From assembly GCA_903900265.1 (NCBI GenBank), contig CAIUMM010000121.1:35269-99268 (forward strand): a DNA stretch of 64,000 bases. Direction: 5' to 3'. Below, in pieces: positions 2,275 through 53,932 of this stretch (its first letter is position 1; every line of letters starts with the position of its first letter). Made by a program: the position numbers and the translations under genes. Origin of the DNA: an uncultured Pseudomonadota bacterium. Its GTDB lineage: Bacteria; Myxococcota_A; UBA796; SXON01. Below the pieces are notes generated by a model, which had not been told where the DNA came from, did not search any database, and saw only the letters and a list, made by a program, of their open reading frames with translations.

Positions 2275-2338
2275 GGTGAGATAGACTCCCGACCATGCCC
2301 CCCAAGCTGCGCCCTTGTAAAGCCCGCTCCGGTGCCCG

Positions 2339-27554: not shown

Positions 27555-28067
27555 ATGCGCACCCGCTCTGCCGTCTCCATCGCCATGTTGGCCCTCTCCT
27601 GCGCGGCGTGCTCCACGCACCGCATGGGCCTGATCATCGCCGATCCCCGAGCGAACGCGCCCACCGTCGTGCGCGATCAAGCCGGCGTCGTCACGCGTCT
27701 CGGCACACAGGGTGAAGCAGGGCCGGTGGCCTACCTCAACGGCTGCATCGTCGAGGTCGACGGGCCGATGGTGTTCGGCACCCTTCAGGTTCACGACTGG
27801 CGCGTGCTCGACGCCGGCGACGGCTCGGGCAACTTCGTGGGTTTGCTGCGCACATACGGAGCCCGCATCGTGCTCGATGACCGCAACTCGGGCTCGACGG
27901 TGATCCTCGATGACCTGAGCGCGGCGCCGCTACGGCCCTACGTGGGGCTGAACGTGCTGGTCATCGGCCACCTGACCGCGACCGGGTACGTCGTCCCAGT
28001 CGCGTTCCGCGTGCTCGCCCCGGTCACTCGTAGTACATCCACAGCGGGCCAGGGAACAGCCAAGTGA
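27555..28067 (+). CDS. hypothetical secreted protein / putative lipoprotein
   Basis: MRTRSAVSIAMLALSCAACS signal sequence. The track ORF start (27216) is over-extended. The 3' end overlaps the convergent esterase gene by 44 bp. Confidence 0.5.
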   Translation: MRTRSAVSIAMLALSCAACSTHRMGLIIADPRANAPTVVRDQAGVVTRLGTQGEAGPVAYLNGCIVEVDGPMVFGTLQVHDWRVLDAGDGSGNFVGLLRTYGARIVLDDRNSGSTVILDDLSAAPLRPYVGLNVLVIGHLTATGYVVPVAFRVLAPVTRSTSTAGQGTAK

Positions 28068-29178
28068 GCGCTTCCCGAAGCCGGTCGCGCCAGTTGATCC
28101 AGTTGTGGCCGTCGGGGACCTCGGTGAACCGAACCCCCTGCGCCACGCGCTGAAACACAGGGACAAGGCTGCGATTGTAGTAGATCAGCGACTCAAAGGT
28201 GCCGCAGGACAAATACACCTGCGCGTCGATGGGCGGCGGATTTTCCCGGAGGTTGTTCACGAAGCTGACGATCGGGTCCCACATCGGGCCGCGCGTGTGC
28301 TCGCCGATGTCGGTGAACGCAAAACTGCCGCTTTGAAGCAGCAAGCGGCCCCAGGTGCCCGGGTGCCGGATCGCCGCGTGCAAGGCGCTGACGCCGCCGA
28401 AGCTGGCGCCCATGATGCCCCGAAACTGCGGCCCCTCCAACACCGGCTGCGTCGCGGCCAGATGCGCGAGCAGATCGTGCTTCAGGAAGTCGGCCTGCGC
28501 CGAATTCGCGGCGTACTCCCAATTGCGACGTACGCCCGAGGTAAAGCACACCAACAGCGGCGCCACCTCATGGCGATGGATCAGGTTGTCCAGCAGCGTG
28601 CGCATCTGCGCGTAGTGCAAAAAGTCCGTACCGTCGTGCACGATCAGCAACGGATACTCTTTGCCGGGCCGCGCCTCGGCGGGAACGTAGAGCTGGTATT
28701 CGCGCTCATCGCCCCAGCTCTGACTGTAGAAGCGGTGCGTCTGCATCGTGCCCTGACGCGCACCGGGATCGTGGCGACACCATTCCGGCTCCTCGTAGCT
28801 GCCGGCGGGACACACGGAGTTCGAGCCGAACGGATCAAAGGCCCGCCGCGGGTTGCGCGGATCGTGCATCCAACGGCCGTTGGGCCCGCGCATGACCTCA
28901 AACTTGTACTCGACGCGCGCGCCGCGTGGCAGATCGAGGGGGAGGTAGAAGGCGTCGGTGTTTCCGATGCGCCGGAACTCTTGCCGCGACGGCAAGCCGA
29001 ACACCCAGTGCTGCAAGAACACCGCGTCGGTGGGCTGGCCGTCCCAGTAGAAAAACGTCGCGTTGTCCCCGTCATCCATGAGCGGGAACTCCCAGCGACT
29101 GACAAACTCGTTCAGCAGTCGATTCGCCTCTCGGGGATTGCGCTCGATGCGCGCGGCGAGATCAAGTACGCGCTGCAT
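28024..29178 (-). CDS. esterase-family alpha/beta hydrolase (enterochelin-esterase-like, N-terminal Ig-like domain)
   Basis: N-terminal beta-sandwich segment (ATFFYWDGQ...YLPLDLPRGARVEYKF), then YQLYVPA....KEYPLLIVHDG and the nucleophile elbow GASFGG. Confidence 0.7.
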   Translation of the reverse strand: MQRVLDLAARIERNPREANRLLNEFVSRWEFPLMDDGDNATFFYWDGQPTDAVFLQHWVFGLPSRQEFRRIGNTDAFYLPLDLPRGARVEYKFEVMRGPNGRWMHDPRNPRRAFDPFGSNSVCPAGSYEEPEWCRHDPGARQGTMQTHRFYSQSWGDEREYQLYVPAEARPGKEYPLLIVHDGTDFLHYAQMRTLLDNLIHRHEVAPLLVCFTSGVRRNWEYAANSAQADFLKHDLLAHLAATQPVLEGPQFRGIMGASFGGVSALHAAIRHPGTWGRLLLQSGSFAFTDIGEHTRGPMWDPIVSFVNNLRENPPPIDAQVYLSCGTFESLIYYNRSLVPVFQRVAQGVRFTEVPDGHNWINWRDRLREALTWLFPGPLWMYYE

Positions 29179-30205
29179 GTCTTCCTCCGGACGCGTCAAG
29201 GCCAGATGCGTCAAGGCCAGCCGCGTCGAGAATCGGGCGTACAACGCCGTCGACGCCCAGCTCAGTCACCGCGCCCTCGCGACCGAACACGCGGCCTTCG
29301 GGACCGATGCCGCCGCCGTTCTGCAAGCCGATGGCCCGCATCGGCGCCAACCGCGACGCAAGGATGGCAATATTATCTTTGCTTTTCAGGTCAAGGCGCT
29401 GCTCAGCGTGGGGCAGGAACACGACGCCGGGGATCAGCCCAAAGCCGCGGTCGAGGTACTCGGCGAGGCCGACGCCGTGCGTGGTGTAGTCATGGTAGAG
29501 CAGGATGCGGTCGGCGAGCACCATCGCTCCGCCCGACCATGCAAAAATCCGCTTTCCTCGAAGGGCTTGGTCCAGCCCAAAGAACGCCATGCGGTTGCGC
29601 AGCACGCCGACATGGCCGCCTGCGACCAGCACCGCAGAGCAGGTCGCCAACGCGTTCTCAATGTTGTCGCGGATGGAACGCACCTTCGGATGTTGAAAAG
29701 GACGCTCCGTCGCCGCGAACTCTTCGTGTAGCCGGTCGGCTTCGGCGAGGAACAGCGCGTCGACCTCTTGGAGGTGCCGGATCGCCTGCTGAAACCACGG
29801 GCACGACGGATCCCGTCGGTCCGCCCAAAGCTTTTGCACCCCGGCGAGCCCAGACACGATCGCGTCCCGGTAGACCGTCTTGACCGCCTTCAACGCAGCT
29901 TGTTTGCGCGCGTGCGCCGTCACTAGCTCGGGGGCGTCGCGCTCGATGTCCCGAAAAGCCCCGTAGAGCTTCAGGTTGATCACCGGCAGGCCGATCGCGT
30001 CCCGCAGCGGCTCATCGCGCTCCTCGTCGTAACGCCAGCCGGCTGAGATCAACGCCACCGGACCCTGCACGCCAGAAAGCGCAGCAGGGAGGATGGGATT
30101 TGGACGCTCTGGCCCGAGTACAGTGACAGACAGCGTGGACTCCTTTCCCGGTCGGGCGGCCTTGCGCACGCAACGTAGCGCGGCCCCCCGGGAACCGACA
30201 CCCAA
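29162..30205 (-). CDS. peptidase S51 / class-I glutamine-amidotransferase-like protein
   Basis: AVLVAGGHVGVL....FFGL....GKRIFAWSGGAMVLAD resembles the S51 (cyanophycinase/peptidase E) nucleophile region. The start is uncertain: TTG 30205, GTG 30169, or a codon just after the AAGGAG at ~30137-30142. Confidence 0.45.
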   Translation of the reverse strand: MGVGSRGAALRCVRKAARPGKESTLSVTVLGPERPNPILPAALSGVQGPVALISAGWRYDEERDEPLRDAIGLPVINLKLYGAFRDIERDAPELVTAHARKQAALKAVKTVYRDAIVSGLAGVQKLWADRRDPSCPWFQQAIRHLQEVDALFLAEADRLHEEFAATERPFQHPKVRSIRDNIENALATCSAVLVAGGHVGVLRNRMAFFGLDQALRGKRIFAWSGGAMVLADRILLYHDYTTHGVGLAEYLDRGFGLIPGVVFLPHAEQRLDLKSKDNIAILASRLAPMRAIGLQNGGGIGPEGRVFGREGAVTELGVDGVVRPILDAAGLDASGLDASGGRHAART

Positions 30206-30208
30206 AGA

Positions 30209-31009
30209 TCAGCTTCCAGCCTTTCCCTTGACGTCGACCTTCGAGCGCCAGACCTCCCAGTGCGGCCCGACACCTTCCAAAGAATCTTCTTGGATGTTCA
30301 GAAACTCCCGAAGTGCGTGGCGACCGACGCCGCGGTTGTAGTGGTATTGGTACTGGAGCGGCCCGTAGCGATGCTCCGCGCCAACCGGACAAGCCGCCCG
30401 GGCATCGCAGCTGGACGCACATACGGTAGAAGTCTGGTGAAACGCCGCACAGGGGTCGACCGCCCACTTGCCGGCGGCGAACGCCCCGCCTGGACAGGCC
30501 GAAGCGCAGGGCGCCGCGCAACCCTCGCAAGAGCCGGGGACCGGCGTAGAAACCGGCAAGTCCGCGTCGATGAAGCACGCCGCGCGTAAGCCGATCCACG
30601 GTCCGTACTCCGGATGCAGCAGCAGCCCGAGTCGGGAGTCCGCGCCGAGGCCGGCCAGCTGCGCCAGCACCCGAAAATCAATGTGAACGTCGGCTTCTGC
30701 CGCGGCAAAAAACCACCGATGCCGGTGACCGACCAGCAGCGGCGCCAGCGCGTCGATGCGACGGCGGACGAAGGCGTCGAGGGGATGGACGTGCTCGGTC
30801 AGGTGGCGCGGCTCGCCGCGTAGATCCTCGATCAGCGCGTCCCAGAGCGCGGTGCCGCCGTTTCCGACGACGACGACCGAGCGCGCCCCTGGGCAAAGCG
30901 CGGCCGATCGGCGCGCTTCGGGCTGCAAAGCATCCCAATCTGCAACCGAAGCGACGCCGATCAGATTCAGACCCGCAGGGGAGAGCGCCGCTTGGAACAC
31001 GTTCAACAT
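30209..31009 (-). CDS. 4Fe-4S ferredoxin-type domain protein (QueG/reductive-dehalogenase-like fold suspected)
   Basis: Cys cluster GSCEGCAAPCASACPGGAF (CxxCxxxCxxxCP) plus downstream CAAFH...CASSCDARAACP. Confidence 0.5.
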   Translation of the reverse strand: MLNVFQAALSPAGLNLIGVASVADWDALQPEARRSAALCPGARSVVVVGNGGTALWDALIEDLRGEPRHLTEHVHPLDAFVRRRIDALAPLLVGHRHRWFFAAAEADVHIDFRVLAQLAGLGADSRLGLLLHPEYGPWIGLRAACFIDADLPVSTPVPGSCEGCAAPCASACPGGAFAAGKWAVDPCAAFHQTSTVCASSCDARAACPVGAEHRYGPLQYQYHYNRGVGRHALREFLNIQEDSLEGVGPHWEVWRSKVDVKGKAGS

Positions 31010-31070
31010 GCTGCGCTCTAACCCGATCGCCCCGCAGGCCCGATCGACCCGCGAGACGCGCCTGCGAGGC

Positions 31071-32078
31071 TCAACCGCGCGCCAAAACCCCCGTCAAACA
31101 GCCGATCCCGCCCGCCGCGCGCAGGTACTGGGCGACGGCCTGTTCGTGCACCTCGACGCCCGCGTCTTCGAGGCGACGGCGCGTCTGTGGGCTCCCCGCG
31201 GGCATCAGGATTTGCCGCGGCGCCAGCGTCACGAAGTTCAGCGCGCGCCCCGCGACCACCTCGGCGGTGCTCTCGAAGTCCAGCACCTTGATGCCCACCC
31301 GCGCGAGCAGCGCCCGCATCGACGGCGAGGCGCCCCAGGCCACGGCGAGGTCGTGATCCACGAGGTTGACCGACCCCAGCAGGTGCTGAACCGTAGCCGG
31401 GATCTCCACGGAGACGCAGTCCACGCCTTGATCGGCGAGCACCCGGGCCACGGTGCGGAAGCCTTCTTCATTCGTGCGCCGCCCCACGCCGACCGCCACC
31501 AGATCAGGGCGGATCCACATGGCGTCGGCGCCTTCAAAAGTCGCGTTGCCACGCGGCGTCGCGAGGATCGGCACCCCAGCCTCCGCCAAGGCCACCGCGA
31601 CGATGCGCTCCTCGCCGGCGCGTTGCTCGGCGGCCATGCGCGCCAGCACCGCCCCCTCGGGGGTCATGAAGAAAAGATCGCAGGCAAAAATAATATTGGG
31701 AGGCGCAGAGTTCGGCGCAGCGACCAACGAGGCTGTCCCCGGCCCGCGAATCCAGCGGACCTCGGCTCCGCACCGCTGGTAAGCCTCGGCGAGGCCTAGC
31801 GCCTCGGCGCGCATGCGCTCCAGATCGGGGCGTTCGTTCATCAACCAATCGGCCGGCGCGCCCGAAAAGCCAAGCCCGTCGTCGGGCCACGCGAGCATCA
31901 CCGCCCGGAGCAGACCGTAGTGGCTGCGTACGCCGAAGCCGGCCCACACCGCACCGGCCGCGACCTCGGCCGCGTGGGAGCGTGTACGCCCACGCCAGCC
32001 CGCGCCCATCAGCGTAGATGGCGAGTTATCCCCAGTTTTATTCCCAGTTTTATTCCCAGTTTTCAGGGTCGACGCCAT
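31071..32078 (-). CDS. guanidino-group modifying enzyme (amidinotransferase / DDAH / arginine deiminase superfamily)
   Basis: TFEGADAMWIRPDLVAVGVGRRTNEEG, HLLGSVNLVD, and the C-terminal nucleophile context AAGGIGCLTGVLAR. ATG 32078 is preceded by AAGGAG at a 7-nt spacing. The N-terminus carries a KTGN repeat. Confidence 0.65.
   Translation of the reverse strand: MASTLKTGNKTGNKTGDNSPSTLMGAGWRGRTRSHAAEVAAGAVWAGFGVRSHYGLLRAVMLAWPDDGLGFSGAPADWLMNERPDLERMRAEALGLAEAYQRCGAEVRWIRGPGTASLVAAPNSAPPNIIFACDLFFMTPEGAVLARMAAEQRAGEERIVAVALAEAGVPILATPRGNATFEGADAMWIRPDLVAVGVGRRTNEEGFRTVARVLADQGVDCVSVEIPATVQHLLGSVNLVDHDLAVAWGASPSMRALLARVGIKVLDFESTAEVVAGRALNFVTLAPRQILMPAGSPQTRRRLEDAGVEVHEQAVAQYLRAAGGIGCLTGVLARG
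32031..32063. repeat. AT-rich 12-bp tandem repeat (cccagttttatt) x2.8
   Basis: Read directly from the sequence. It lies in the 29-bp overlap between two minus-strand genes. It encodes K-TGNK-TGNK-TG at one N-terminus and ...ENWE-stop at the other C-terminus. Confidence 0.9.
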
Positions 32079-33393
32079 AGCCCAGCTCCTTCATGATCGA
32101 CAGGTTGGCAGGGTCGGCGAGCACCGGCGACAGCAGCCCGATCCGCGCAAACCAGCGACGCTGCCGGGGCTGCGCGGTCGCCATCACCAACGGCAACGCC
32201 CCCGAGAGCACCGCCGAGAGCTCCGAAGCCACCGGCAACCCGAGCCACTGTTCGAGTGCGTCCAGAGCGGGCCGTTGACGATCCGAGGGACCTAGCGCGT
32301 CCTCAAAACGGAGCCGAAATGGAGCTTCCCGACCAGGCACACGCGCGTCGGCGAGCAAGGCGGCGTGCGCCGAGCGCCACTGAAACGCGCACACCTGCTC
32401 GAGCGGCGCCGAGGCGTACGCCTGCCAGTCCACCGGACGATCGAACTTCCACCACCGATCCGCACCGGGGACGACGCCGGTGTACCCGGCGATGTTGAGC
32501 CCGCCTACCTCGTGGGAGTGGAACCCCGGGTGACGCCAGCCATCGTAGAGGCCGTTCACGCTGCCGCCGACGTTCCGCGTCAAATGCAGCACCCGCAGCC
32601 GAGCGCTGGCAAACACCCGACGCAGCCAATCGAGTCGGTAGGCGTTGCTCGGCGTCTTGATCACCAGCGGATGCGCAGCGAGGCGCTCTTCATCCGCGAC
32701 CTCCCAAGGCCCGGTGAGCACGAACGGGGGCTCCTCGAGGATGCCGCGAGGGACAAAATCCACCCCGCACGAATCTGGCCCAGAGCCCAGCGCCGCCATC
32801 CGTCGCTGATCGAGGTCGTACGCGGCAGGTTGAATCTCCGGCCAATACACGCGCAGCGCGCTGATGAGCCGCGCGTGGAAGTGCGGCGGATCGGCGAACA
32901 GGCCTGGCGGCCAGCCATGGTTCTCGCGAAGCTCGCGCAGCACGCCCTGCACGCAGCGATGCACGGTGTCTGCGTCGAAGCTCAGGCTGGGCCACTGCAG
33001 GGTGAGGCGAACGGCGATCTCGACGGCAAAGCGCCATTCATCGCGTTCGCCGTGCAGCGTGTTGGTCGGCCACCCACAGTCCCAACCCAGCTCCTGCCCC
33101 AGCCCCGCGGGCACAGGCGTGTCGGCGGCGAGCGCGTCGGAGTGCGGATCATCGACGCCGTGCAGCCGGAAGAACGGGTTGATCTCGGCGCGCAGGTGCA
33201 GCATCCGCCGGCTGTTGCGCAGCACCTCGGCAAAAATCGAGCTGCCCCCTCGGGAGCTTGAACCGATGACGATCACCTGCGAGGCGCAGCGCGTCACATC
33301 CGGAGGCGCAGCCGCGCCGCTCTGGGCACGCAGCGCCGCCATCCGCGCGCGGATCCCCGAAAGCTCGCCTTCTCCCAGCCTCGAATCAGACAC
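32050..33393 (-). CDS. sulfotransferase-like protein (447 aa)
   Basis: P-loop-like PAPS 5'-phosphosulfate-binding candidate VIVIGSSSRGGSSIF and a later LHLTRNVGGSVNG segment. The GTG start overlaps the upstream stop (GTGTCTGA). Family call is tentative. Confidence 0.45.
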   Translation of the reverse strand: MSDSRLGEGELSGIRARMAALRAQSGAAAPPDVTRCASQVIVIGSSSRGGSSIFAEVLRNSRRMLHLRAEINPFFRLHGVDDPHSDALAADTPVPAGLGQELGWDCGWPTNTLHGERDEWRFAVEIAVRLTLQWPSLSFDADTVHRCVQGVLRELRENHGWPPGLFADPPHFHARLISALRVYWPEIQPAAYDLDQRRMAALGSGPDSCGVDFVPRGILEEPPFVLTGPWEVADEERLAAHPLVIKTPSNAYRLDWLRRVFASARLRVLHLTRNVGGSVNGLYDGWRHPGFHSHEVGGLNIAGYTGVVPGADRWWKFDRPVDWQAYASAPLEQVCAFQWRSAHAALLADARVPGREAPFRLRFEDALGPSDRQRPALDALEQWLGLPVASELSAVLSGALPLVMATAQPRQRRWFARIGLLSPVLADPANLSIMKELGYGVDPENWE

Positions 33394-34426
33394 CGAGCAC
33401 CAGCCGCGACCGGATCCGCGTCAGCAAAACCGACCGACTCCAGCGCTTCCAGAAGTTCTTGTCCCGCCGGAACGAGCGCGCCTCGACCTTCAACCACGCA
33501 GCTTCATCCTCGATCCACCACCCCGCGCGCTGCACCGGGCCGGGGTGAAACGCCGCGCGGGCCTCGGCGGTGTTCACTGGGGTGTAGCCCAGCGCCTCCA
33601 TCGTCGACCCGGCGATGCTCTCCAGCGCGAGCACCTCGGGGGTCGAGAGGTCGCCGCGCCAGCGCTCCAAGCCTTCGGTGCGGATAGGCGCGGCGGTGTT
33701 CTTCCAGGACTCGGACAACGACGCCGACTTGCGAGCTTCGGCGCCCTTGAAAAACTCCAGCATTGGAGGGTGGAAGTCCTCTCCCAAGTAGTCGCAGATG
33801 CGGCGGACCTCGCCCGCGGCATCGCCGATCAGCGACTCGTACTTGACGCGCAGCAAGGGCACACCGGCGCGCTCGAGCGCGAGGCCCTGATCTTGCTGCT
33901 CCTTCCATAGAGCGGCGGTGTTCGCCGGGTGAAACGCTGAAAAAACAGACTCTCGGGACGACGCCGCGACGTCGCGCGGGTCTCGGTACAACCAGAGCAG
34001 CTTGGCGTCCGGCCACTCAGCGACGATGCGCTCGCCGTGGGCGATCATGAAGGTGCTCTTGCACCCCCAACGCCGCTTGTGCTCATGATCGCGCACCGCA
34101 TCATGAAAAGCCGCGTAGACCGAGAACAGATCCGGAGGACCGCCCGGCCCCGGCCGGCGCCCGACGCGCTCGATGATCTCGGCGACCTCGGGCACCCACG
34201 GCCAAGGCTGAATGTGCGCGCAGACCAGCAGACGCACGTCCTCGATCAGACGGCGCAGGCGCGCCGGATCGGAAAGATCACCGTACTTCGCGGCGAGCGG
34301 CGTGAAGTACTTCATCACATGCGGGGGATGCGGGATGACGATGCTGGGGTGGCTGCCGAGGATCACCCGCAGCAGGTTGGAGCCCGAGCGCTCGGTACCA
34401 AGAATGAAGAGGGGCGACGCAGTCAT
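33386..34426 (-). CDS. sulfotransferase family protein
   Basis: LFILGTERSGSNLLRVILGSHP (5'-PSB loop) and LLWLYRDPRDVAAS (3'-PB motif). ATGA overlap with the upstream gene. Confidence 0.7.
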   Translation of the reverse strand: MTASPLFILGTERSGSNLLRVILGSHPSIVIPHPPHVMKYFTPLAAKYGDLSDPARLRRLIEDVRLLVCAHIQPWPWVPEVAEIIERVGRRPGPGGPPDLFSVYAAFHDAVRDHEHKRRWGCKSTFMIAHGERIVAEWPDAKLLWLYRDPRDVAASSRESVFSAFHPANTAALWKEQQDQGLALERAGVPLLRVKYESLIGDAAGEVRRICDYLGEDFHPPMLEFFKGAEARKSASLSESWKNTAAPIRTEGLERWRGDLSTPEVLALESIAGSTMEALGYTPVNTAEARAAFHPGPVQRAGWWIEDEAAWLKVEARSFRRDKNFWKRWSRSVLLTRIRSRLVLGV

Positions 34427-35355
34427 GGTTCCGGAGAGTCTACCCCAAAAACCTCGGCGAGCAGGCAACGCGCGCTGCCGCCACCGACGGTCTCCACCGT
34501 GTCGATGTCCACGACCACCGTCCTTCCCAACATCGCCCGCTGCGAAGCGGTGAGCGCAGCAAAGGCGCGCCGCGACAGCACCGCGACCGGCCCCGCAGGG
34601 GAGCTCAGATAAAGAAGGTTCGCGGCGTAGTCCCGAATCTGGGCGGCTTCGAGCACGAGCTGCCGACGATCGCCCAGCGCGCTTAGCAACGCGGCGCGCG
34701 CCGCCCCCGGCGCCACCAGATCAGGCGCGAACACCACCAGCTCCGGGCCCAGCGCCAGCATCACGTTGGTGTGGTAGACCGGCGCGCCGTCTAAAGCTGC
34801 GTCAAACGCCACGATTCGGTAGCCCGTAGCCTCTGAAAACGCCGATAGACCCGCGGTCGTTGTGCGCGGAGAGCGCGCCGCAAACGCCACGCGCGCCGCA
34901 TGGTCAAGGATGAGGCTGCCCGTACCTTCGAGGTAGGCGCCATCGGCCTCCAGCGCGCTCAGGTCTACGACGCGCCGGGTGCCATGAAAAGCACGCACCT
35001 GCTCCAAGAGCTCCGGTCGCCGCTCTGCGCGCCGGGAGGCGACCGCCATCGGGTACAGCACCGCGGTGCCATCGGGGTGAAAACTCACCCAGTTGTTGGG
35101 AAAACACGCGTCCGGCTTCGGCGGCTCTATCGCGTCTGCGGCGAGAAAAACCCGCACGCCCGCCGACTGCAACGCCTCCGCCGCGCGCTCCACCTCGAAA
35201 CGCGCGCGCGCGCGCTCGCTCGGCGGGACGCAAGCCGCGCCGGCGTCCTCCGGGCCCGACACGCCCTCCTGAGCGAACACGTTGGTCACCGCCGCTTCCG
35301 GGTTGAAGCCGAAGCGCTCGGGGCGAACCATCAACACGGCAGGGGCGAGCCACAT
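34423..35355 (-). CDS. guanidino-group modifying enzyme, CtlX / amidinotransferase-like
   Basis: MVRPERFGFNPE, FPNNWVSFHPDG, LEGTGSLILD, VYHTNVMLALG and the C-terminal GGGSARCLLAEVF nucleophile context. The start could be 35355 or 35331. Confidence 0.65.
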   Translation of the reverse strand: MWLAPAVLMVRPERFGFNPEAAVTNVFAQEGVSGPEDAGAACVPPSERARARFEVERAAEALQSAGVRVFLAADAIEPPKPDACFPNNWVSFHPDGTAVLYPMAVASRRAERRPELLEQVRAFHGTRRVVDLSALEADGAYLEGTGSLILDHAARVAFAARSPRTTTAGLSAFSEATGYRIVAFDAALDGAPVYHTNVMLALGPELVVFAPDLVAPGAARAALLSALGDRRQLVLEAAQIRDYAANLLYLSSPAGPVAVLSRRAFAALTASQRAMLGRTVVVDIDTVETVGGGSARCLLAEVFGVDSPEP

Positions 35356-35441
35356 ACAAGCCTCGGGAGAAGATCGCCCGGTATCAAACAAACTCCACCG
35401 CGCCCCTCCCGGGAACAACGCCGGTTCGCTACCTTGCGAAC

Positions 35442-36863
35442 ATGCTCTGGATGTACTGCTTTTGGCTCCTCGGATGCGCTTCGCCGGCGCTACGGGCGCC
35501 CGCAGCGCCCCTCTCGGTGGTGATGGTCTCCTTCGACACCACCCGCGCCGACCGAATCGGCACGTACGGAGGCCCTTCTGGGCTGACGCCCAACCTCGAT
35601 CGATTCGCTGAAGGGGCCGTGGTGTTCGAGCACGCCTACGCGCAGACCAACACCACCGGCCCCTCTCATGCGAGCCTGTTCACCAGCCGCTACCCCACTG
35701 AGGTCCACGGAGGCGGCCCCGTCGCGGCGCCCGGCGCGGAGACCCCGCTGCTCGCGCAGGTGCTGCACGCCTACGGCTACGCCACCGCCGCGTTCGTGTC
35801 GGGCGGCGCGATGAACCCGCAAGGCGGGCTGGCCCCGGGCTTCGACGTCTACAAGTCCGCCAGCAACTTTGGCTCGATGTCCAAGACCATCCCGCTCGCG
35901 CTCAGCTGGCTTGAAAAACTACCCGCATCCAAGCCAAGCTTTACCTTCGTACACGGCTACGACGCGCACTCTCCCACGTCCAAGCCCGCGCCCTTTGCCG
36001 GCAAACCCCCGACCGGGCTGGCGGCCGAGGTGCTGCGCACCCGATCCGAGCGCGTCATGGACGGCGCGATGCACGCCACCGATCTCGATATTCCCGTGAT
36101 CGACAGCACGTTTCTCCGCATGCGGTCTCCCGAAGCCCGCGCGGCGCTCACCGCGCTGGAGCCCGACGCCCCGCAGCTCACCGAAGCGGACATCGCCCGG
36201 ATCCGGCAGTCCTACGACGACGCGCTGGGGTGGGCGGACACCTGGTTCGGGATGCTGATGGCCGGCCTCGAGGCCCAACATCGCCTCGAAAACACCGTGA
36301 TCATCGTGCTCGCCGACCATGGGGAGCAGCTCGGTGAAGACGGCCTGTTCGGTCACTGCTGCGGGGCGGAGGATGAAGAGACCCACGTGCCGCTGATCAT
36401 CGCTGGCCCCGGGCTCAAGCCCCACCGCGAAGCCGGCCTCGTCGAGCTGATCGACGTCCTGCCGACGATCACCGATCTGGTGCAGGCCGTCACGCCCACC
36501 GGCGCGCACGGACGCTCGCTCGCGCCCGCGCTGCACGGAGAGCCTTGGGAGGGGCGCGGAGTCGCGTGGACCCAAGCCACGCAGCGCTACACGCTGGTTT
36601 CTGGCCGCACCGGCACCGGCAGGCTCTCGTACACCGGCGTACAAGCCAAGTCCTCGGCGCTGGCGGACCTGATCGAAGTGGCCCGACTCGACGGTCCCGG
36701 CTTCACGTCGTCCGGCACCGTCGACCGCGCCGCGCTCCGGACCGAAATGGTGAGCTGGCTGCGCTCCCTCGGTCCCGCCGCCGCAGAAAAAAAGCTCGCG
36801 ACGCCACCCGAGCTGCTCCGGACGATGCGGTCGCATGGCTACTTCGAGGCCAACAAACCATGA
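35442..36863 (+). CDS. sulfatase-family (alkaline-phosphatase superfamily) lipoprotein with Thr at the nucleophile position
   Basis: Lipobox MLWMYCFWLLGCASP, then VVMVSFDTTRADR and TNTTGPSHASLFTSRYP. The usual C/S-x-P-x-R is T-G-P-S-H here. Also VLADHGEQLGE. Confidence 0.7.
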   Translation: MLWMYCFWLLGCASPALRAPAAPLSVVMVSFDTTRADRIGTYGGPSGLTPNLDRFAEGAVVFEHAYAQTNTTGPSHASLFTSRYPTEVHGGGPVAAPGAETPLLAQVLHAYGYATAAFVSGGAMNPQGGLAPGFDVYKSASNFGSMSKTIPLALSWLEKLPASKPSFTFVHGYDAHSPTSKPAPFAGKPPTGLAAEVLRTRSERVMDGAMHATDLDIPVIDSTFLRMRSPEARAALTALEPDAPQLTEADIARIRQSYDDALGWADTWFGMLMAGLEAQHRLENTVIIVLADHGEQLGEDGLFGHCCGAEDEETHVPLIIAGPGLKPHREAGLVELIDVLPTITDLVQAVTPTGAHGRSLAPALHGEPWEGRGVAWTQATQRYTLVSGRTGTGRLSYTGVQAKSSALADLIEVARLDGPGFTSSGTVDRAALRTEMVSWLRSLGPAAAEKKLATPPELLRTMRSHGYFEANKP

Positions 36864-37339
36864 TCTTCTTGCTGCTGGCCTGTAGCGGCCCCACGTGGAC
36901 GGCATCCGCGGTGCTCGAAGGAGCGCGCGCGCACGCCGACCTCGATCACGACGGCACGATCACCGCCAAGGAGATGCCCGGGGATGCCGACAACGACGGC
37001 ATCGTCACCGAAGCCGAGCTGCGCGCGTTCATCGAAAAACAAGGCGCCAAGTGGCACTCTCCCGGCTGGGACCCACCTCGGCGCGCCCTCGTCCAACCGC
37101 ATGACGTCGGCTGGGAGGTGGTCGCCACGGTGCGCGAAGAGATCCTATCGGTCGATCCCAACGCTGAAGTTCCGACCTTGGAAGCCATGGAATCCGCGGC
37201 CTACGCCGCTATCACCGACCCGAAGGTGCAGGCGCTGCTGACCCAGATGGAGCCCGCAGCCGCCAAAACTGGGGTGGTCATCCCCGCGGCGGTGCACCCG
37301 CCCGTGGCCGCCGCTCAGGCTGGCTTGAAGCAGGAGTAG
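36860..37339 (+). CDS. EF-hand pair lipoprotein
   Basis: MIFLLLACSG lipobox and two canonical 12-residue Ca-binding loops, DLDHDGTITAKE and DADNDGIVTEAE. ATGA overlap with the sulfatase-family gene. Confidence 0.7.
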   Translation: MIFLLLACSGPTWTASAVLEGARAHADLDHDGTITAKEMPGDADNDGIVTEAELRAFIEKQGAKWHSPGWDPPRRALVQPHDVGWEVVATVREEILSVDPNAEVPTLEAMESAAYAAITDPKVQALLTQMEPAAAKTGVVIPAAVHPPVAAAQAGLKQE

Positions 37340-39267
37340 ACGACCCAACGCCAACAGTCCCGGATCTCTCCGGTGGGCGAGATCTCGAAGGGATGCACGG
37401 CGCGCACCTCAGCGGGACACTGGTGGTACAGATCCTTGATCTGATGCCGGTGCAACGCCGGGGTCTCCCACGTGGCGATCCAGTTGTCGATGTCTTCCCA
37501 CTGCAGGAACTCTTCGGTGGTCAGACCGACAAAGCCGGCGCCGGCGAGCAGGCTGCGCATGTCTTCGTCGTACAGGTTGTTCACAAACAACGGCTGCTTT
37601 TTCTTGACGACCTGGAACATCCACGGACCATCGATCGCCGAGAACGGCACCCACTGGCCGACCACAAACTGGCCGCCGGGCTTGATGACGCGGAAGATCT
37701 CGGAGAGCGGGCGCTCGGGCTGCGGCAACAGGTGCAGCACCTCGCGGTTGCACACGCCGTCGAAGCTGTTGTCCGGGAACGGGATGTCGTACACATCGCC
37801 TTGAACCACTTCATCCAGACGGGTGCGCGCGAGCGCCGCCATCTCAGGGGTCAGGTCCAAACCGATGATCTTGCCGACCTTGCCGCGGAACGAGTTTCCG
37901 ACCACGCCGCTGCCGCAGCAGACGTCGAGGATGACGGCGTCCTTCGACATCACCGAGGATCCACCGTGCAAGCCGAGCAGCCCGGCGTTGGTGATCCAAT
38001 CGGCCGAAGCGTGCCAGTTCTTGGAGCGGATGCCGAACTGTTGGCGGTAAATGTCCTTGTCGACGAGGTGCTCGACACGCTCGTAGCGCGCGCGCTCGCT
38101 CGCCCGACGAGAGGCGAGCCGGGCCCGACCGGCTTCGATCGCCCGACCGACGATCGCCGAGGCTTCCACCGGGTTGGAGCGCAGCCAGCTGGCGAGGCCG
38201 CCGGCCAACACATGCTCGACCGCGGCGCCCGCAGCGTCATCCAACAAGCGGGTCTTGGTCTGGCCTTCGAAGTGCGGATCGCGCATCCGAACCGAGAGCA
38301 CCGCGACGAGGCCCTCCATCGCGTCGGTGCTGCCGAGCGGCTCGGTGGGGTCGATGAGCTTCTGCTCCAACGCGAAGCGCGCGAGCTGGTGCCCGACCGC
38401 GGCGCGCAGGCCGTCCAGATGAGCGCCGCCGAGCGCGGTGTGCACGTGGTTGACGTAGCACTGCACGTCTTCAGCGAACGCGCGGGTCCAGAGCAGCGCG
38501 GCCTCGACGGTCACGCCGGACTCTTCGCCCTGAATGACCAGCGCCTGAGCGTGAACCAGCTCTTCGTCGTCGGCCATCCAGCGCACAAAGCCGCCGATGC
38601 CTTCATCCGAGGAGAAGCGCACGGTCTGACCCGCGCGGGACAACGCACACTGCAGCCCGCCGGTGAGCCAGCTCTGCGCGCGGAGCCAGGCCTCAACGGC
38701 GTCGACATCGACGCGCGCGGCGCCAAAGATCGTGGGATCGGGCGTAAACCGCACCGTCGTGCCCGAGCCGCTCGCGTCGGCGACGCGATGGAAGGCTTCG
38801 GACTGCTCGCCGCGCACCCAAGCGCCGCGCCAGCGTCCGCCGTCCCGGGACACTTCAAGCTCAAAGCGCTCGGAGAGCGCGTTGACACAGGTGAGTCCGA
38901 CGCCGTGCATGCCGCCGGGCAGGCGGTAGGCGCCGTCGCGGAACTTGCCGCCGGCGTGCAAGGTGGTCACGACCACCTCGGCCGCGGGGCGACCATCGGC
39001 CAAGGGTTCCACGGGGATGCCGCCGCCGTCGTCCGCGATCGTCCAGGTGCCGTCTGCGTCGACGGTGACGTCGATGCGGTGGGCACGACCGGAGAGCGCC
39101 TCGTCGAGCGAGTTCTGCAGCACTTCAACGACGAGCTGCATCACACCGGCGGCGCCGGTAGAGCCGACGTACATCGCCGGGCGGAGGCGCACGGCCTGCA
39201 GCCCTTCGAGGACGACGATGCTGCTGGCGTTGTAGGTAGAACCAGAATTCTGAGTCGTATCGCTCAC
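37315..39267 (-). CDS. GyrB-type GHKL ATPase + transducer domain fused to class I SAM-dependent methyltransferase (no TOPRIM)
   Basis: The N-terminal ~400 aa are colinear with the window's own gyrB: LEGLQAVRLRPAMYVGSTG, EVLQNSLDE, DDGGGIP, TTLHAGGKF, GMHGVGLTCVNALS, FEGQTKTRL. The C-terminal ~220 aa carry ILDVCCGSGVVG (motif I) and IKPGGQFVV. GTG 39267 follows GGAGGA and overlaps the upstream stop (GTGA). The track ORF start (39630) is over-extended. Confidence 0.8.
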   Translation of the reverse strand: MSDTTQNSGSTYNASSIVVLEGLQAVRLRPAMYVGSTGAAGVMQLVVEVLQNSLDEALSGRAHRIDVTVDADGTWTIADDGGGIPVEPLADGRPAAEVVVTTLHAGGKFRDGAYRLPGGMHGVGLTCVNALSERFELEVSRDGGRWRGAWVRGEQSEAFHRVADASGSGTTVRFTPDPTIFGAARVDVDAVEAWLRAQSWLTGGLQCALSRAGQTVRFSSDEGIGGFVRWMADDEELVHAQALVIQGEESGVTVEAALLWTRAFAEDVQCYVNHVHTALGGAHLDGLRAAVGHQLARFALEQKLIDPTEPLGSTDAMEGLVAVLSVRMRDPHFEGQTKTRLLDDAAGAAVEHVLAGGLASWLRSNPVEASAIVGRAIEAGRARLASRRASERARYERVEHLVDKDIYRQQFGIRSKNWHASADWITNAGLLGLHGGSSVMSKDAVILDVCCGSGVVGNSFRGKVGKIIGLDLTPEMAALARTRLDEVVQGDVYDIPFPDNSFDGVCNREVLHLLPQPERPLSEIFRVIKPGGQFVVGQWVPFSAIDGPWMFQVVKKKQPLFVNNLYDEDMRSLLAGAGFVGLTTEEFLQWEDIDNWIATWETPALHRHQIKDLYHQCPAEVRAVHPFEISPTGEIRDCWRWVVYSCFKPA

Positions 39268-39746
39268 TTGCTTCCTCCGTCGCTTTCTGCCGAACGGAGC
39301 CCCGCGAGCAAGCTCGAGAGCCGCGCCGCGTGCGCAGCCCGCAGCCGGCCCTGACTGGCGAACCAGCTGGAAATATCCGCAAAACCTTCGTTCATCGCCG
39401 TGCGCGAGCGAGACTGCTCGGCCTCGGCATCCCGGGCGTAGAACGCCGCGAGCGCCGTGACGTTCAATCGTGAGTCGCCGATCGCCTTGCCGGTCAGCGG
39501 CTCCCGTGCCCGCATCAGCAGGTCGAGCGTGCCGCGCGCGTTGATCGCGTGCTGCTCGCCGATCTCGCGAAGCGCCCGGGCAAGCTCGGGCTCTCCTTCG
39601 ATCTCGGCGATGCGCGCGAAGTACCCGCACTCCACACCGGCGACGGACTCGTCGCGCAGCGCAGTCTCAAGCTGCTCACACGTGAGCGTCTCCTGAAGCG
39701 CAGGTTGAACATACCGACCTGCAGCTCGTTCGATTTTTTGGCTCAT
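39264..39746 (-). CDS. rubrerythrin/ferritin-like four-helix-bundle protein (no rubredoxin domain)
   Basis: Two rubrerythrin-like half-repeats: ECGYFARIAEIEGEPELARALREIGEQHA and AAFYARDAEAEQSRSRTAMNEGFADISSWF......AAHAARL. Confidence 0.55.
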   Translation of the reverse strand: MSQKIERAAGRYVQPALQETLTCEQLETALRDESVAGVECGYFARIAEIEGEPELARALREIGEQHAINARGTLDLLMRAREPLTGKAIGDSRLNVTALAAFYARDAEAEQSRSRTAMNEGFADISSWFASQGRLRAAHAARLSSLLAGLRSAESDGGSK

Positions 39747-39765
39747 TAGATTTCAGCGCGCCCTT

Positions 39766-41385
39766 TCAGACCTGAACCATGAATTCGCCGGAGCGCACGC
39801 GGGTCAAGGTGACCCCCGGGCCCGCAGGCTTCAGACCGCGGAACGCTTCGGTGCCCGGAGCAGGCACGCCACCGGCAGACGCGAACTCCGCGCGCCACGC
39901 AGTGGTGGGTTCGGGATCGTAGTACGCGAAGTGCTCGGGGAAGTGCTTGAAGTCCATGACCGGGCCTTCCTGGTAGCTGTCGTACAGGCGCTTGTAGGCG
40001 CTGCGCATGACATGGTCCGGGAGCTCGTTGTAGTTCAGGTACTCGTCACGCTCCAGCGCCTGCTCGACGGAGAGCCAACGGAGATGCTGGACTTCGTCCT
40101 GGATGCGGCCGGACGCCACGCCCTGGTGGTACACGGTGGTGCCGGGCATCGCGGACAGGTACTTCACGCGGGTGATGTGGCGATTCTCTTCGGCCCACTT
40201 GCACATGTGGTCGAGGCTCTCCTCGGTCTCGCCGGGGAGGCCGACGATGGTGAGGCCGCCGTAGCGGATGCCGCCTTCCGCCGAGTGCTTCATCGCCTTC
40301 ATGACGATGTTCTCGGTGCTGCCCTTGCGGGCTTCCTTCAACGCGGCGGGCGTGAGCGACTCCACGCCGTAGAGCGCGATGTCGCAGCCGGCTTCGCCCA
40401 TCGCTTTGGTGATCTCAAGATCGACGTCGGCGTTGCGGGTCAGGCAGGTCCAGCCGATGTCGAACTCCTTGATGACGTCGAGGTATTCGAGGGTCTGCTT
40501 CTTGTGCGCGGTGAACGTGAGGTCGACGAAGAACGCGAACTCGATGTTGTACTGCGACTTGAGCCAGGTGAGCTCGCTGTGCAGCTTCTGGGGCGACTTG
40601 ACCCGCTCCTGAGGCGTGGTGCGGTAGCAGAAGGAGCAGTCCATCTTGCAGCCACGCGAGTAGCTGGTGATGATCTGAGGCTGCAAACCACGGGGATCTT
40701 TGGACTGGGGCCAAAGGTCGAGCCGCATGTTCGGCAAGGAGTTCAAGTTGGGCATCTGGCCGCGCGGCGGCGTGCTGTGTACGCCGCCCTTGGCGTCTTT
40801 GTACCAGATGCCGTTGATCTGCGGCAGGCGGGTGTCCCACGCGCCTGTGGCGTAGGCTTCCATCACCTCGAGGATGGTCAGCTCGCCTTCGGAGATGACC
40901 GCGACGTCGGCGCGCGTCTCGCGCATGAACACGTGCGGCACGGAGGTGACGAGCGAGCCGCCGAGGATGACCGGCATGTTCGGGCGCGCGTTCTTGCACT
41001 CGCGGATGAGGTCTTCTACGAACGGGTAGTTGTCCTCAAAGGTAGCGATACCGAGCACGTCGGTACCTTCCATGATCTGGTCGTAGGCCGACTGCAGCGG
41101 CGTGGGGTCGTAGCGCACGTCGATGATGCGCACCGGGAACCCGGCGTTGATCAGCACGGTGGCGATGTAGGTGAGGCCCTCGTACGGGGAGGTCAGGAAG
41201 AACTCCCAGCCACGCGGCATCGTGAACGGAGACGGTCCGCAGACCAACGTGACGCGAGGAAGCCCCGAATTCGTGGCCGAGACCGGCGTGACCGACTGCT
41301 GAGCCATCTGATCCATCAGCTGCTGATCGGTGTTCGTGCCGGCAGTGATGTAAAGGCTGGGGTCCAGAGAGGGTGTGTACGCCAT
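39766..41385 (-). CDS. B12-binding-domain radical SAM enzyme
   Basis: Cluster motif YSRGCKMDCSFCYRT and an N-terminal B12-binding-like Rossmann region (VTLVCGPSP...IIDVRYDP...PVILGGSLVT). ATG 41385 sits 5 nt after AGGAG. Confidence 0.85.
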   Translation of the reverse strand: MAYTPSLDPSLYITAGTNTDQQLMDQMAQQSVTPVSATNSGLPRVTLVCGPSPFTMPRGWEFFLTSPYEGLTYIATVLINAGFPVRIIDVRYDPTPLQSAYDQIMEGTDVLGIATFEDNYPFVEDLIRECKNARPNMPVILGGSLVTSVPHVFMRETRADVAVISEGELTILEVMEAYATGAWDTRLPQINGIWYKDAKGGVHSTPPRGQMPNLNSLPNMRLDLWPQSKDPRGLQPQIITSYSRGCKMDCSFCYRTTPQERVKSPQKLHSELTWLKSQYNIEFAFFVDLTFTAHKKQTLEYLDVIKEFDIGWTCLTRNADVDLEITKAMGEAGCDIALYGVESLTPAALKEARKGSTENIVMKAMKHSAEGGIRYGGLTIVGLPGETEESLDHMCKWAEENRHITRVKYLSAMPGTTVYHQGVASGRIQDEVQHLRWLSVEQALERDEYLNYNELPDHVMRSAYKRLYDSYQEGPVMDFKHFPEHFAYYDPEPTTAWRAEFASAGGVPAPGTEAFRGLKPAGPGVTLTRVRSGEFMVQV

Positions 41386-43686: not shown

Positions 43687-44544
43687 TCACTCCTCCGCGG
43701 AGGATTCCTCGCGACGGTAGATCTCGACGCGCTTCTCCGGGCCTTCGCCCAGCGAGCGCGACGCAACGCCGCTGACGTTGGCCACCTCGGTGTGCACGAG
43801 ACGACGCTCGTAGCTGTTCAGCTCGCGGCGGATCACTTCGGGTTCGCCGGTGTCCGCCACCTTGTTTGCGAGCTTGAGAGCGAGCTCCTTCAGGCGCTGC
43901 TCGTTGGAGCCACGATCCCCACGGTCGTCCCGACGCGGGCCGCGATCATCGCGACGCGGGCCACGGTCATCCCGACGCGGGCCACGATCATCGCGACGCG
44001 GGCCGTCGTTCCGGTAACCGCCGCGGTCGCCGCCGCGATCGCTACCGCGATCACCGCCGCGATCATCGCCGCGATCATCGCCGCGGGGACGGTCGTCGCC
44101 GTCCCCTTCGGGACGCGCCACATCGATGCGGAATTGAATGCCGGGGTGCTTCGGACCGATCGCGGTCTCCATCAGGTACTGCACGGCGCGCAGGGTGCTG
44201 CCGCCGCGACCCACCAGATGCCGACCGGCCTCCCCCACGTCGACCCAGGTCAGCACGGTGTCATCGCGCCGCTCGGCGCGCACGGTGCCCTGGCGACCCA
44301 TGGTGCTCAAAAGGCCCGACATCCACGCTTCCGCGTCCATCGACGCCGCGATGTCCCCAGGATCCTTGGCCCACGCGAAGATCTTGACGGTCTCCGCGCC
44401 GGTGGTGCCGGCGTTGCGAAAGTGGGCCATGTCCAGCTTGTGCTGCACGAGGTTGACCGGAACGCCGAGCGAAGCCGCAGCGGCCTCAATGGCAAGCTTC
44501 AAGCTCCGCCCTTCGGCGACGACATGGGAATCAGGGATGCTCAT
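43687..44544 (-). CDS. jag: Jag/KhpB RNA-binding protein (Jag_N, KH, R3H) with inserted Arg/Asp/Gly repeat
   Basis: Position after yidC and a C-terminal R3H context LNSYERRLVHTEVANVSGVASRSLGEGPEKRVEI. The central region is DRGGDRG...(GPRRDDR)x4. Confidence 0.8.
   Translation of the reverse strand: MSIPDSHVVAEGRSLKLAIEAAAASLGVPVNLVQHKLDMAHFRNAGTTGAETVKIFAWAKDPGDIAASMDAEAWMSGLLSTMGRQGTVRAERRDDTVLTWVDVGEAGRHLVGRGGSTLRAVQYLMETAIGPKHPGIQFRIDVARPEGDGDDRPRGDDRGDDRGGDRGSDRGGDRGGYRNDGPRRDDRGPRRDDRGPRRDDRGPRRDDRGDRGSNEQRLKELALKLANKVADTGEPEVIRRELNSYERRLVHTEVANVSGVASRSLGEGPEKRVEIYRREESSAEE
43924..44007 (-). repeat. 21-bp tandem repeat x4 encoding (GPRRDDR)4
   Basis: Units at 43924-44, 43945-65, 43966-86 and 43987-44007 differ by 1-3 nt. 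In frame inside jag. Confidence 0.9.

Positions 44545-51466: not shown

Positions 51467-53932
<2,466 letters not shown>

Follow-up and report, generated by a model that had tools for sequence, protein, structure and literature searches.

The gene array and its surroundings

The DNA analyzed here is a 64,000-nucleotide stretch of contig CAIUMM010000121.1 (the window); its host is a Myxococcota-like bacterium of high GC content that has not been cultured. Seven open reading frames (ORFs) follow one another on the minus strand at 28024-35418, and we number them 1 to 7 from upstream to downstream (Table 1). A sequence-only reading had described these genes as a single tightly packed operon, in a pathway that it did not recognize, and suggested that they make or remodel a sulfated metabolite or peptide of guanidino or ureido type. 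We find that genes 2 to 4 belong with three genes further upstream to a cassette whose six members are homologous to nucK, nucO, nucN, nucJ, nucP and nucQ, which are genetically needed for formation of the sulfamate group of nucleocidin, and that genes 6 and 7 are independent of this cassette.

The seven ORFs are real, as are most of the junctions previously described for them. Gene 1 is predicted to be translationally coupled by an ATGA junction to gene 2, which encodes a 3'-phosphoadenosine 5'-phosphosulfate (PAPS)-type sulfotransferase. Genes 2 and 3 meet at GTGTCTGA, an 8-nt overlap that is conserved; the GTG start of gene 3 at 33393 is backed by N-terminal conservation with homologs, although the public gene call starts instead at ATG 33342. 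Genes 3 and 4 overlap by 29 nt, and the same gene pair overlaps by ~19-25 nt at at least nine other loci of the survey described below. A 61-nt gap separates genes 4 and 5. Consensus promoter and terminator scans of the array returned nothing above chance and are uninformative in high-GC DNA such as this (G+C 62-73% in 2-kb windows).

All seven enzyme-family assignments were confirmed, by profile searches, by the profiles of homologs for genes 3 and 6, and by fold prediction for genes 5 and 6. The Ig-like N-terminal domain that had been proposed for the gene 7 esterase was not recovered, its sole match being a sub-threshold one to Enterochelin_N (E = 0.055). Upstream of gene 1, the divergently transcribed sulfatase-family and EF-hand genes are also real, and both products begin with lipobox-like sequences. 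Beyond them the minus strand resumes with a GyrB-type ATPase fused to an S-adenosylmethionine (SAM)-dependent methyltransferase, a rubrerythrin-like protein and a radical SAM enzyme.

Table 1. Features of the window, in window coordinates
Feature	Position	Strand	Assignment
Gene 1	34423-35355 (alternative start 35418)	-	CtlX-like
Gene 2	33386-34426	-	NucK-like PAPS-type sulfotransferase
Gene 3	32050-33393	-	NucO-like large sulfotransferase-like protein
Gene 4	31071-32078	-	NucN-like DDAH/ADI-fold Cys hydrolase or transferase
Gene 5	30209-31009	-	Corrinoid/2x[4Fe-4S] protein, QueG/CblC/RdhA fold (predicted)
Gene 6	29162-30169 (alternative starts 30058/30205)	-	S51-fold protein (predicted)
Gene 7	28024-29178	-	Esterase, enterochelin-esterase/esterase-D family
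'Sulfatase' gene	35442-36863	+	Alkaline-phosphatase superfamily, lipobox LLGC/ASP; Pfam Sulfatase 1e-38, Phosphodiest 2e-10
EF-hand protein gene	36860-37339	+	Lipobox LLAC; Pfam EF-hand_1
NucP-like gene	37315-39267	-	Fusion, 650 aa: GyrB-type GHKL ATPase, transducer, class I SAM methyltransferase
NucQ-like gene	39264-39746	-	Pseudo-rubrerythrin, 160 aa; 36% identical to S. calvus NucQ
NucJ-like gene	39766-41385	-	B12-binding radical SAM enzyme, 539 aa; Pfam B12-binding and Radical_SAM
Tandem repeat	32026-32063		12-nt unit, 3.2 copies, gene 3/4 junction
Small ORF	27624-28067	+	147 aa
jag	43687-44622		Jag/R3H
yidC	44531-46321		YidC
dnaA	47279-48766		
dnaN	49021-50241		
gyrB	51467-53932		Genuine GyrB
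Second radical SAM gene	55-2274		B12-binding radical SAM
Distal gene cluster	55-5539		Apparent sugar-modification cluster

Relatives of the cassette

We searched for relatives of the cassette through the aligned family of the gene 3 (NucO-like) product. Scanning one genome per species gave 198 pattern-matching stretches, 180 of which encode a gene 3 relative, and the best 80 loci, a non-redundant set, were retained for comparison. Full 10-kb flanks are present at 39 of these 80 loci, which provide a second denominator for co-occurrence. Carriers of the NucO family in the scan include the nucleocidin producer Streptomyces calvus, other Streptomyces, Micromonospora, Actinomadura, Sorangium sp. 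So ce1128 and many metagenome-assembled genomes (MAGs). Where relatives of the cassette proteins have a name they are Myxococcales/Myxococcota MAGs, the basis for calling the host Myxococcota-like; several have record names that indicate lakes (Baikal, Erken), and the window proteins recur identically on several metagenome contigs (for example ENA ERZ18641202 scaffold_163). Public MAG records that bear the cassette (for example L007, L011 and L017) are often implausibly named, as Klebsiella pneumoniae, Bifidobacterium breve or 'uncultured Enterobacterales'; their genes are Myxococcota-like and the taxon labels are unreliable.

Core genes are homologs of nucleocidin sulfamylation genes

Six proteins encoded in the window are homologs, at 36-60% identity, of NucJ, NucK, NucN, NucO, NucP and NucQ from the nuc clusters of S. 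calvus and S. virens. Knockouts in S. calvus have shown that nucI, nucG, nucJ, nucK and nucL, as well as nucN, nucO, nucQ and nucP, are each needed for sulfamylation, and not for fluorination, of nucleocidin (Wojnowska et al. 2023, PMC10946740). The site that is sulfamylated is the 5'-OH of adenosine, and the sulfamylation genes have no paralogs in the producing organisms (PMC10946740).

The product of gene 2 (Pfam Sulfotransfer_3 8e-28, Sulfotransfer_1 3e-8) is 42% identical to S. calvus NucK. The signature protein of the cassette is the gene 3 product, which is 41% identical to S. calvus NucO; it has no Pfam match itself, and most of its homologs carry PF13469. Across 26 diverse members of this family SSSRGGSS and HLTRN, two motifs that resemble PAPS loops, do not vary, and one member (P0043, 667 aa) is a fusion that bears an APS-kinase domain, features that together support the use of PAPS by NucO-type proteins. 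Longer members of the family also occur (P0406, P0452 and P0467, 766-873 aa). The family is small, as a threshold of E <= 1e-30 yields 372 clusters out of 1.84 billion representatives, and it is spread over many lineages.

Gene 4 encodes a protein of the arginine deiminase (ADI)/dimethylarginine dimethylaminohydrolase (DDAH) family (PF02274, 3e-16) that is 45% identical to S. calvus NucN. Its closest solved relative is P. aeruginosa DDAH (PDB 1h70/3rhy, E = 1e-12), to which it aligns over the whole fold, and the alignment to PDB 3rhy shows conservation of DDAH Cys249, His162 and Glu114 (GGxxC, the HL motif and the E of 'TxEaxD'). The protein is thus DDAH-like rather than like the amidinotransferase AGAT and, with its catalytic triad kept, looks active. 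Unlike DDAH, to which its similarity is distant (it scores 68 and 51 bits against NCBIfam DDAH equivalog cutoffs of 340 and 450 bits), it has a ~100-residue N-terminal extension with a variable KTGN repeat, and its gene is always linked to two sulfotransferase genes. The (KTGN)n stretch is encoded by the tandem repeat at the gene 3/4 junction, and since strain variants of the protein (335, 331 and 327 aa) differ in repeat copy number, the stretch is hypervariable. None of the NucK-, NucO- and NucN-like proteins has a signal peptide.

The three upstream proteins show a similar relationship to the S. calvus set. The NucJ-like enzyme is 60% identical to the S. calvus NucJ region. S. calvus NucQ matches Pfam Rubrerythrin, whereas the NucQ-like protein of the window has no Pfam match. 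The NucP-like protein (Pfam HATPase_c, DNA_gyraseB and Methyltransf_11) is 48% identical to S. calvus NucP and is a paralog of the genuine GyrB encoded 12 kb away, which S. calvus NucP matches at 42%. It keeps the ATPase and transducer domains, and a methyltransferase replaces the Toprim and C-terminal domains of GyrB. The N-box, DxGxG, GxxGxG and QTK motifs can be read in its translation, and the ATP-binding motifs are intact.

Extent and conservation of the cassette

The same genes recur at the related loci, those for the NucK- and NucN-like proteins most often (Table 2). All six of the J, Q, P, K, O and N homologs are present at 15 of the 39 fully flanked loci. In an all-versus-all clustering of all ORFs in the related loci no further family was common to more than eight loci, and the six-gene set thus behaves as a self-contained module. 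The only other recurrent neighbor is a pair of ORFs of ~290 aa each, present at eight loci each (among L036, L038, L047, L057, L059, L061, L069, L075, L082 and L086), which look HflK/HflC-like (band-7 type) on a reading of their sequences.

Table 2. Co-occurrence of cassette and neighboring genes with the NucO family
Gene	All retained loci	Fully flanked loci
NucK-like	56/80	33/39
NucN-like	53/80	27/39
NucP-like	42/80	23/39
NucJ-like	41/80	26/39
'Sulfatase'	40/80	24/39
NucQ-like	38/80	22/39
Gene 5	21/80	12/39
Genes 1, 6, 7 and EF-hand protein	0/80	0/39

Gene order is conserved as well. L039, L046, L053, L055 and L076 have the order J-Q-P-K-O-N, which stands as a single operon at several loci from other phyla, and the window keeps the same order on the minus strand, where the inverted lipoprotein pair and gene 1 come between P and K. 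The complete set is present in the window and in its nearer relatives L009, L023, L025 and L087. L087, the closest cassette-bearing relative (81% NucO identity), keeps in addition a GMC oxidoreductase and the EF-hand, 'sulfatase' and CtlX-like genes, arranged as GMC oxidoreductase, J, Q, P, EF-hand, sulfatase, CtlX-like, K, O, N. From this conserved order and these conserved partners we infer a functional unit that extends from ~30209/31071 to 41385. The span flagged by the sequence-only reading covers only the downstream half of this unit, which continues upstream across the divergent pair through 37315-41385.

A threonine-type 'sulfatase' is encoded divergently

The divergent lipoprotein gene had been assigned to the sulfatase family. 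The formylglycine motif of type I sulfatases (C/S-x-P-x-R) is absent from its product, which has T-G-P-S-H at that position and so has Thr for formylglycine; motif alignment rules out a true formylglycine sulfatase. The pattern T-x-x-S-H is common to the cassette-linked 'sulfatase' homologs, including S. calvus NucG (motif alignment, loci L006-L086), the exception being a sub-clade (L004, L005, L017 and L024) that has NFTLAGL. We take the threonine motif to resemble the Thr-nucleophile T-x-P-x-H motif of nucleotide pyrophosphatases, and the secondary match of the window protein to Phosphodiest fits a motif of this type. With T-x-x-S-H in place of the formylglycine motif, the published label of 'sulfatase' for NucG and its ascamycin counterpart AcmG is probably mechanistically wrong. 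The window protein and NucG share the Pfam family and the Thr-x-x-S-H motif but are only 28% identical. A lipobox or membrane anchor is present on the window 'sulfatase' and on most of its diderm homologs.

The EF-hand protein encoded next to the 'sulfatase' is lineage-specific, being kept in the closest relative L087 (56% identity) and at none of the 80 other loci. L087 has an extra gene with an FGE-sulfatase domain (L087 5244-5930) between its NucP-like and EF-hand genes, which the window does not have. Its presence is odd, as the adjacent 'sulfatase' has no formylglycine motif.

Accessory genes 1 and 5

Gene 1 belongs to PF19420 (1e-61) and scores 278.5 bits against NCBIfam CtlX, under the equivalog cutoff of 334; a sequence-level search of the PDB gave no match for it. 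What separates CtlX from its guanidino-acting relatives is Asn in place of two guanidino-binding Asp residues, in the signatures FPNN and HTN (Price et al. 2022, PMC9007349). Gene 1 shares the CtlX fold, both substitutions (within CFPNNW and YHTNV) and the C-terminal Cys motif (GGGSARC), and is therefore a putative ureido (citrulline) hydrolase, not the second guanidino enzyme for which it had been taken. The usual partners of CtlX, ocd and aruG, are not beside gene 1, which adjoins a sulfotransferase gene instead. Gene 1 is conserved with the cassette only in L087 (70% identity).

Gene 5 is a recurrent accessory of the cassette. Its product matches QueG (7e-5) and PceA (3e-4) in phmmer searches, and the top Foldseek matches of its AlphaFold2 model (pLDDT 92.6) are QueG (9e-9), MMACHC/CblC and the reductive dehalogenases (RdhA), with which it appears to share the corrinoid-binding fold and two ferredoxin-type Cys clusters; eight Cys residues are invariant. 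The protein scores 37 bits against TIGR00276 (QueG; cutoff 200), over residues 110-180 only, and at 266 aa is ~100-170 aa shorter than the matched QueG chains (~370-440 aa). The place of gene 5 beside the cassette varies: it can be divergent from K, follow N, follow P or precede O, and adjacency in four arrangements argues for a functional link. We considered gene 5 as a possible equivalent of NucI and rejected this, because the S. calvus ORF between nucG and nucJ is similar to no window sequence; that ORF has weak helix-turn-helix matches only.

In one clade of loci, seen in L004 (4024-8903) and L005 (4068-8867), a divergent operon beside K-O-N contains a gene 5 homolog together with a member of the NFTLAGL 'sulfatase' subfamily. 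It also encodes a protein of 700 aa that ends in an SGNH/GDSL domain, and a small DUF5989 protein; there is no J, Q or P within 10 kb.

Genes 6 and 7 are a separate module

Gene 6 has no profile match itself, its distant homologs carry PF03575 (Peptidase_S51), and sequence-level PDB searches with either the single sequence or a profile returned only noise. Its AlphaFold2 model (pLDDT 89.4) predicts an S51 fold (cyanophycinase/PepE-like) that carries a long helical insertion: S51 proteins make up all 17 of the best PDB matches, and the invariant motifs W-S-x-G-A-M and P-H-A provide the Ser nucleophile elbow and the His of that family. Gene 7 is a PF00756 member (4e-21) that scores 90 bits for NCBIfam enterochelin esterase, under the cutoff of 222.

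These two genes form an unrelated, housekeeping-type two-gene module. Homologs of gene 6 lie directly upstream of a gene 7 homolog, with the same 17-nt overlap as in the window, at two loci from which the cassette is absent, L089 and L090. L089, which comes from the same sampling project, was compared with the window by tblastx with a score filter and is syntenic with it from 30142 to the chorismate synthase gene at ~23290: gene 6 (74% identity) and gene 7 (86%) are followed by the VKOR-DsbA, trypsin-like protease and PRT-like genes in the same order. Similarity ends at the gene 5/6 boundary and L089 has no cassette. In L090 the pair stands in an unrelated context, and L087 has other genes where the window has genes 5-7. 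The cassette-free synteny and the break at the gene 5/6 boundary imply that genes 6 and 7 are an independent backbone module beside which the cassette lies, and thus that the seven genes are not a single conserved unit as had been proposed. The gap of 3 bp previously reported for genes 5 and 6 assumes a TTG start that has no support. The public gene call gives a gap of 150 nt, and since conservation with L089 extends to 30142 a GTG start at 30169, which leaves a gap of 39 nt, is more likely.

The small ORF beyond the esterase gene is convergent to it, the two overlapping by 44 nt at the 3' end of the esterase gene. In L089 the ORF is 62-68% conserved; it has no Pfam match, and may be either a genuine small gene or a shadow ORF.

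Comparison with characterized gene clusters

Sulfamate natural products are described as exceedingly rare, and the examples covered in the literature that we read, such as nucleocidin and ascamycin, are from actinomycetes (PMC10946740, PMC9113183). At least 11 genes are genetically implicated in formation of the S-N bond, the chemistry of which is still described as unknown (PMC9113183); the C5'-oxygen of nucleocidin is reported to be retained (PMC10616807). In the literature that we searched we found neither a solved sulfamate mechanism nor a report of the cassette outside actinomycetes; either may exist elsewhere.

The window shares with the nuc cluster not just the six homologs but also domain architectures, namely the fusion of a GyrB-type ATPase with a methyltransferase and a large sulfotransferase-like protein that scores only weakly. 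In both organisms the PAPS genes are unclustered: in S. calvus nucW and nucA lie elsewhere in the genome and are likewise required (PMC10946740). Relative to the nuc cluster the window adds the CtlX-like hydrolase, the QueG/CblC-fold Fe-S protein and the EF-hand lipoprotein. It has no purine nucleoside phosphorylase (PNP), glycosyltransferase, fluorination or regulator genes, whereas at the S. calvus locus, as expected of the nuc cluster, a PNP gene and a LuxR regulator are found as well. The alkaline-phosphatase-superfamily protein of the window is divergent in sequence (28% identical to NucG) and a predicted exported lipoprotein, and the host is Myxococcota-like where that of nuc is Streptomyces.

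The same gene set is found in the acm cluster for ascamycin and dealanylascamycin of Streptomyces sp. JCM9888 (Zhao et al. 2014, PMC4257720). There it was annotated as acmG (sulfatase), acmJ (Fe-S/radical SAM), acmK (sulfotransferase), acmN ('amidinotransferase'), acmO (hypothetical), acmP ('topoisomerase II') and acmQ (rubrerythrin) (PMC4257720). The acm cluster also includes PAPS synthesis (acmA, B and W), AlaRS-like enzymes, major facilitator superfamily (MFS) exporters and nucleoside-forming enzymes, none of which is encoded near the window cassette.

Guanidino-group enzymes and sulfotransferases also occur together elsewhere. Clusters of the saxitoxin/cylindrospermopsin type pair an AGAT-type amidinotransferase with a PAPS sulfotransferase on polyketide synthase (PKS) or PKS-like scaffolds, whereas the window has no PKS and its gene 4 is DDAH-like. 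A saxitoxin/cylindrospermopsin- or phaseolotoxin-like pathway was dropped, because the homologs are the nuc/acm genes and gene 4 is DDAH-like.

A proposed sulfamoyl-forming pathway

We consider it likely that the flagged array is a composite, in which genes 2-4, plausibly with genes 5 and 1, are the downstream half of a cassette for a sulfamoyl group (R-O-SO2-NH2), with the unrelated genes 6 and 7 making up the rest. The best reading of the cassette, by analogy with the characterized clusters, is that it would encode a variant of the sulfamoyl-forming pathway of nucleocidin and ascamycin. Its product would then most likely be the sulfamate of a nucleoside (adenosine-type) or some other small metabolite that is sulfamoylated; as acceptor only adenosine has a precedent. 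The idea of the sequence-only reading that sulfotransferases and guanidino-group enzymes act jointly, here in sulfur-nitrogen chemistry, is in our judgment correct, and stands together with its family assignments; its proposal of a single unit and the extent that it gave this unit do not, and the pathway, which it did not recognize, is a recognizable one.

In such a pathway the NucK-like enzyme would use PAPS, made elsewhere in the genome, to sulfonate the acceptor hydroxyl. The NucO-like protein might act as a second, 'activating'-type sulfotransferase that handles or re-activates the sulfuryl group. The DDAH-like NucN homolog could supply the nitrogen through a covalent Cys-thiouronium intermediate formed on an arginine-type guanidino donor, with release of a citrulline-type ureido by-product. 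Release of such a by-product would explain why this lineage recruited the CtlX-like citrullinase of gene 1, which may recycle it to ornithine. Activation or redox steps would fall to the B12 radical SAM enzyme, to the GHKL-ATPase/methyltransferase fusion and to the rubrerythrin-like protein, and the gene 5 product may process or reduce the corrinoid of the B12 enzyme or be a reductase in its own right. A bolder version of this scheme treats J-Q-P-K-O-N as a widespread self-contained sulfamoyl pathway, in use far beyond actinomycetes and also in Myxococcota-like bacteria of lakes, in which the sulfamate nitrogen is cut from an arginine-type guanidino group, for example by way of an N-sulfo-guanidino intermediate, leaving citrulline; we put this forward tentatively and regard it as improbable in this specific form.

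Several observations weigh against assigning the cassette to sulfamoyl formation. S. calvus needs both NucI and a separate NucL, and neither has an equivalent in the window, S. calvus NucL matching only the methyltransferase domain of the NucP-like fusion; NucI-like ORFs are found at seven loci only, the S. calvus locus included. Annotation of the window shows no cys or PAPS genes, and no nucleoside, transporter or self-resistance genes near the cassette. The 'sulfatase' has diverged far from NucG and is a predicted exported lipoprotein whereas NucG is cytoplasmic, which makes their orthology uncertain. Gene 5 is missing from the closest relative L087 and occurs without the cassette in cultured myxobacteria (Pyxidicoccus, Pendulispora), and the link of CtlX to NucN is based on a single lineage. 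At 11 of the 39 fully flanked loci no J, Q or P gene lies within 10 kb of K-O-N, and the core may thus serve more than one pathway. The roles assigned in S. calvus come from knockouts only, in another phylum, and none of the proteins has a known chemistry.

Alternative explanations

The original proposal, that all seven genes are one operon which makes or remodels a sulfated metabolite or peptide with a guanidino or ureido group, with the S51-like protein and the esterase in tailoring or processing, draws on the tight same-strand packing of the genes, the correct family assignments and the lack of a convincing terminator between genes 5 and 6, and co-transcription of genes 6 and 7 with the cassette may occur in this genome. 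It is difficult to reconcile with the finding of genes 6 and 7 in L089 in the same backbone (VKOR-DsbA, trypsin-like, chorismate synthase) without the cassette and in L090 in an unrelated context, with their replacement by other genes in L087, and with the presence of genes 1, 6 and 7 at none of the 80 related loci; it also disregards the conserved J-Q-P partners upstream. We judge it to have a low probability. A catabolic or fortuitous grouping, in which the DDAH-like and CtlX-like enzymes break down arginine and citrulline beside a set of genes for scavenging sulfate esters (the sulfatase and the sulfotransferases) with no common product, is very improbable. CtlX is indeed known from fitness data on citrulline utilization (PMC9007349), and DDAH-type enzymes are catabolic hydrolases, yet K, O and N are adjacent across 53-56 of the 80 loci in several phyla, with conserved overlaps, the 'sulfatase' is without a formylglycine motif, and the genes annotated in the window include neither ocd nor aruG, the typical partners of CtlX.

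Another possibility is that the K-O-N core, with or without gene 5, works with an exported or anchored Thr-type alkaline-phosphatase-superfamily enzyme to add a sulfate-derived group to a lipid or glycan of the envelope or extracellular space in diderms. The likeness to nuc would then reflect shared chemistry and not a shared product, and no nucleoside sulfamate would be made. Lipoprotein signals or N-terminal membrane anchors on the alkaline-phosphatase-superfamily proteins of the non-actinomycete loci point in this direction, as do the 700-aa SGNH-domain protein and small DUF5989 protein of the L004/L005 divergent operon, the 11 fully flanked loci that have K-O-N without J, Q or P, and the lack of nucleoside-related or resistance genes near the window cassette. 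We nevertheless think an envelope function unlikely, given that the window, L009, L023, L025 and L087 have the full J-Q-P-K-O-N set that is tied to sulfamylation, that the K, O and N proteins lack signal peptides, and that the loci have no conserved genes for glycosyltransferases or lipids.

Wider implications

The core of the sulfamylation gene set is thus present in an uncultured Myxococcota-like genome, and the NucO family is present in 180 species-level genomes, in many of them as a compact J-Q-P-K-O-N operon without other conserved neighbors. The spread of this small family over many lineages is the chief interest of the finding. It offers smaller and simpler systems in which to reconstitute S-N chemistry, one of them in Sorangium sp. 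So ce1128, which has been cultured. A further suggestion is that sulfamoylated metabolites are commoner than has been thought. Nucleoside sulfamates hijack aminoacyl-tRNA synthetases with high potency (PMC7613620), and new producers would therefore matter for antibiotic and antiparasitic discovery. Two mechanistic clues also emerge: proteins of the NucN family resemble DDAH, with a putative citrullinase as partner in the window, and the 'sulfatases' are of a Thr type and not formylglycine enzymes. On the bolder, improbable version of the scheme, the coupling of CtlX to NucN in this lineage would indicate the long-sought source of the nitrogen and make S-N bond formation directly testable in vitro.

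Genomic setting

The cassette lies a few kb from the origin region of the genome, which is marked by the jag, yidC, dnaA, dnaN and gyrB genes (Table 1) and by a minimum of cumulative GC skew at ~48-50 kb. At the other end of the window, a second B12-binding radical SAM gene is followed by genes for a nucleotidyltransferase, an NAD-dependent epimerase/dehydratase and a DegT-type aminotransferase, a group that looks like a separate sugar-modification cluster.

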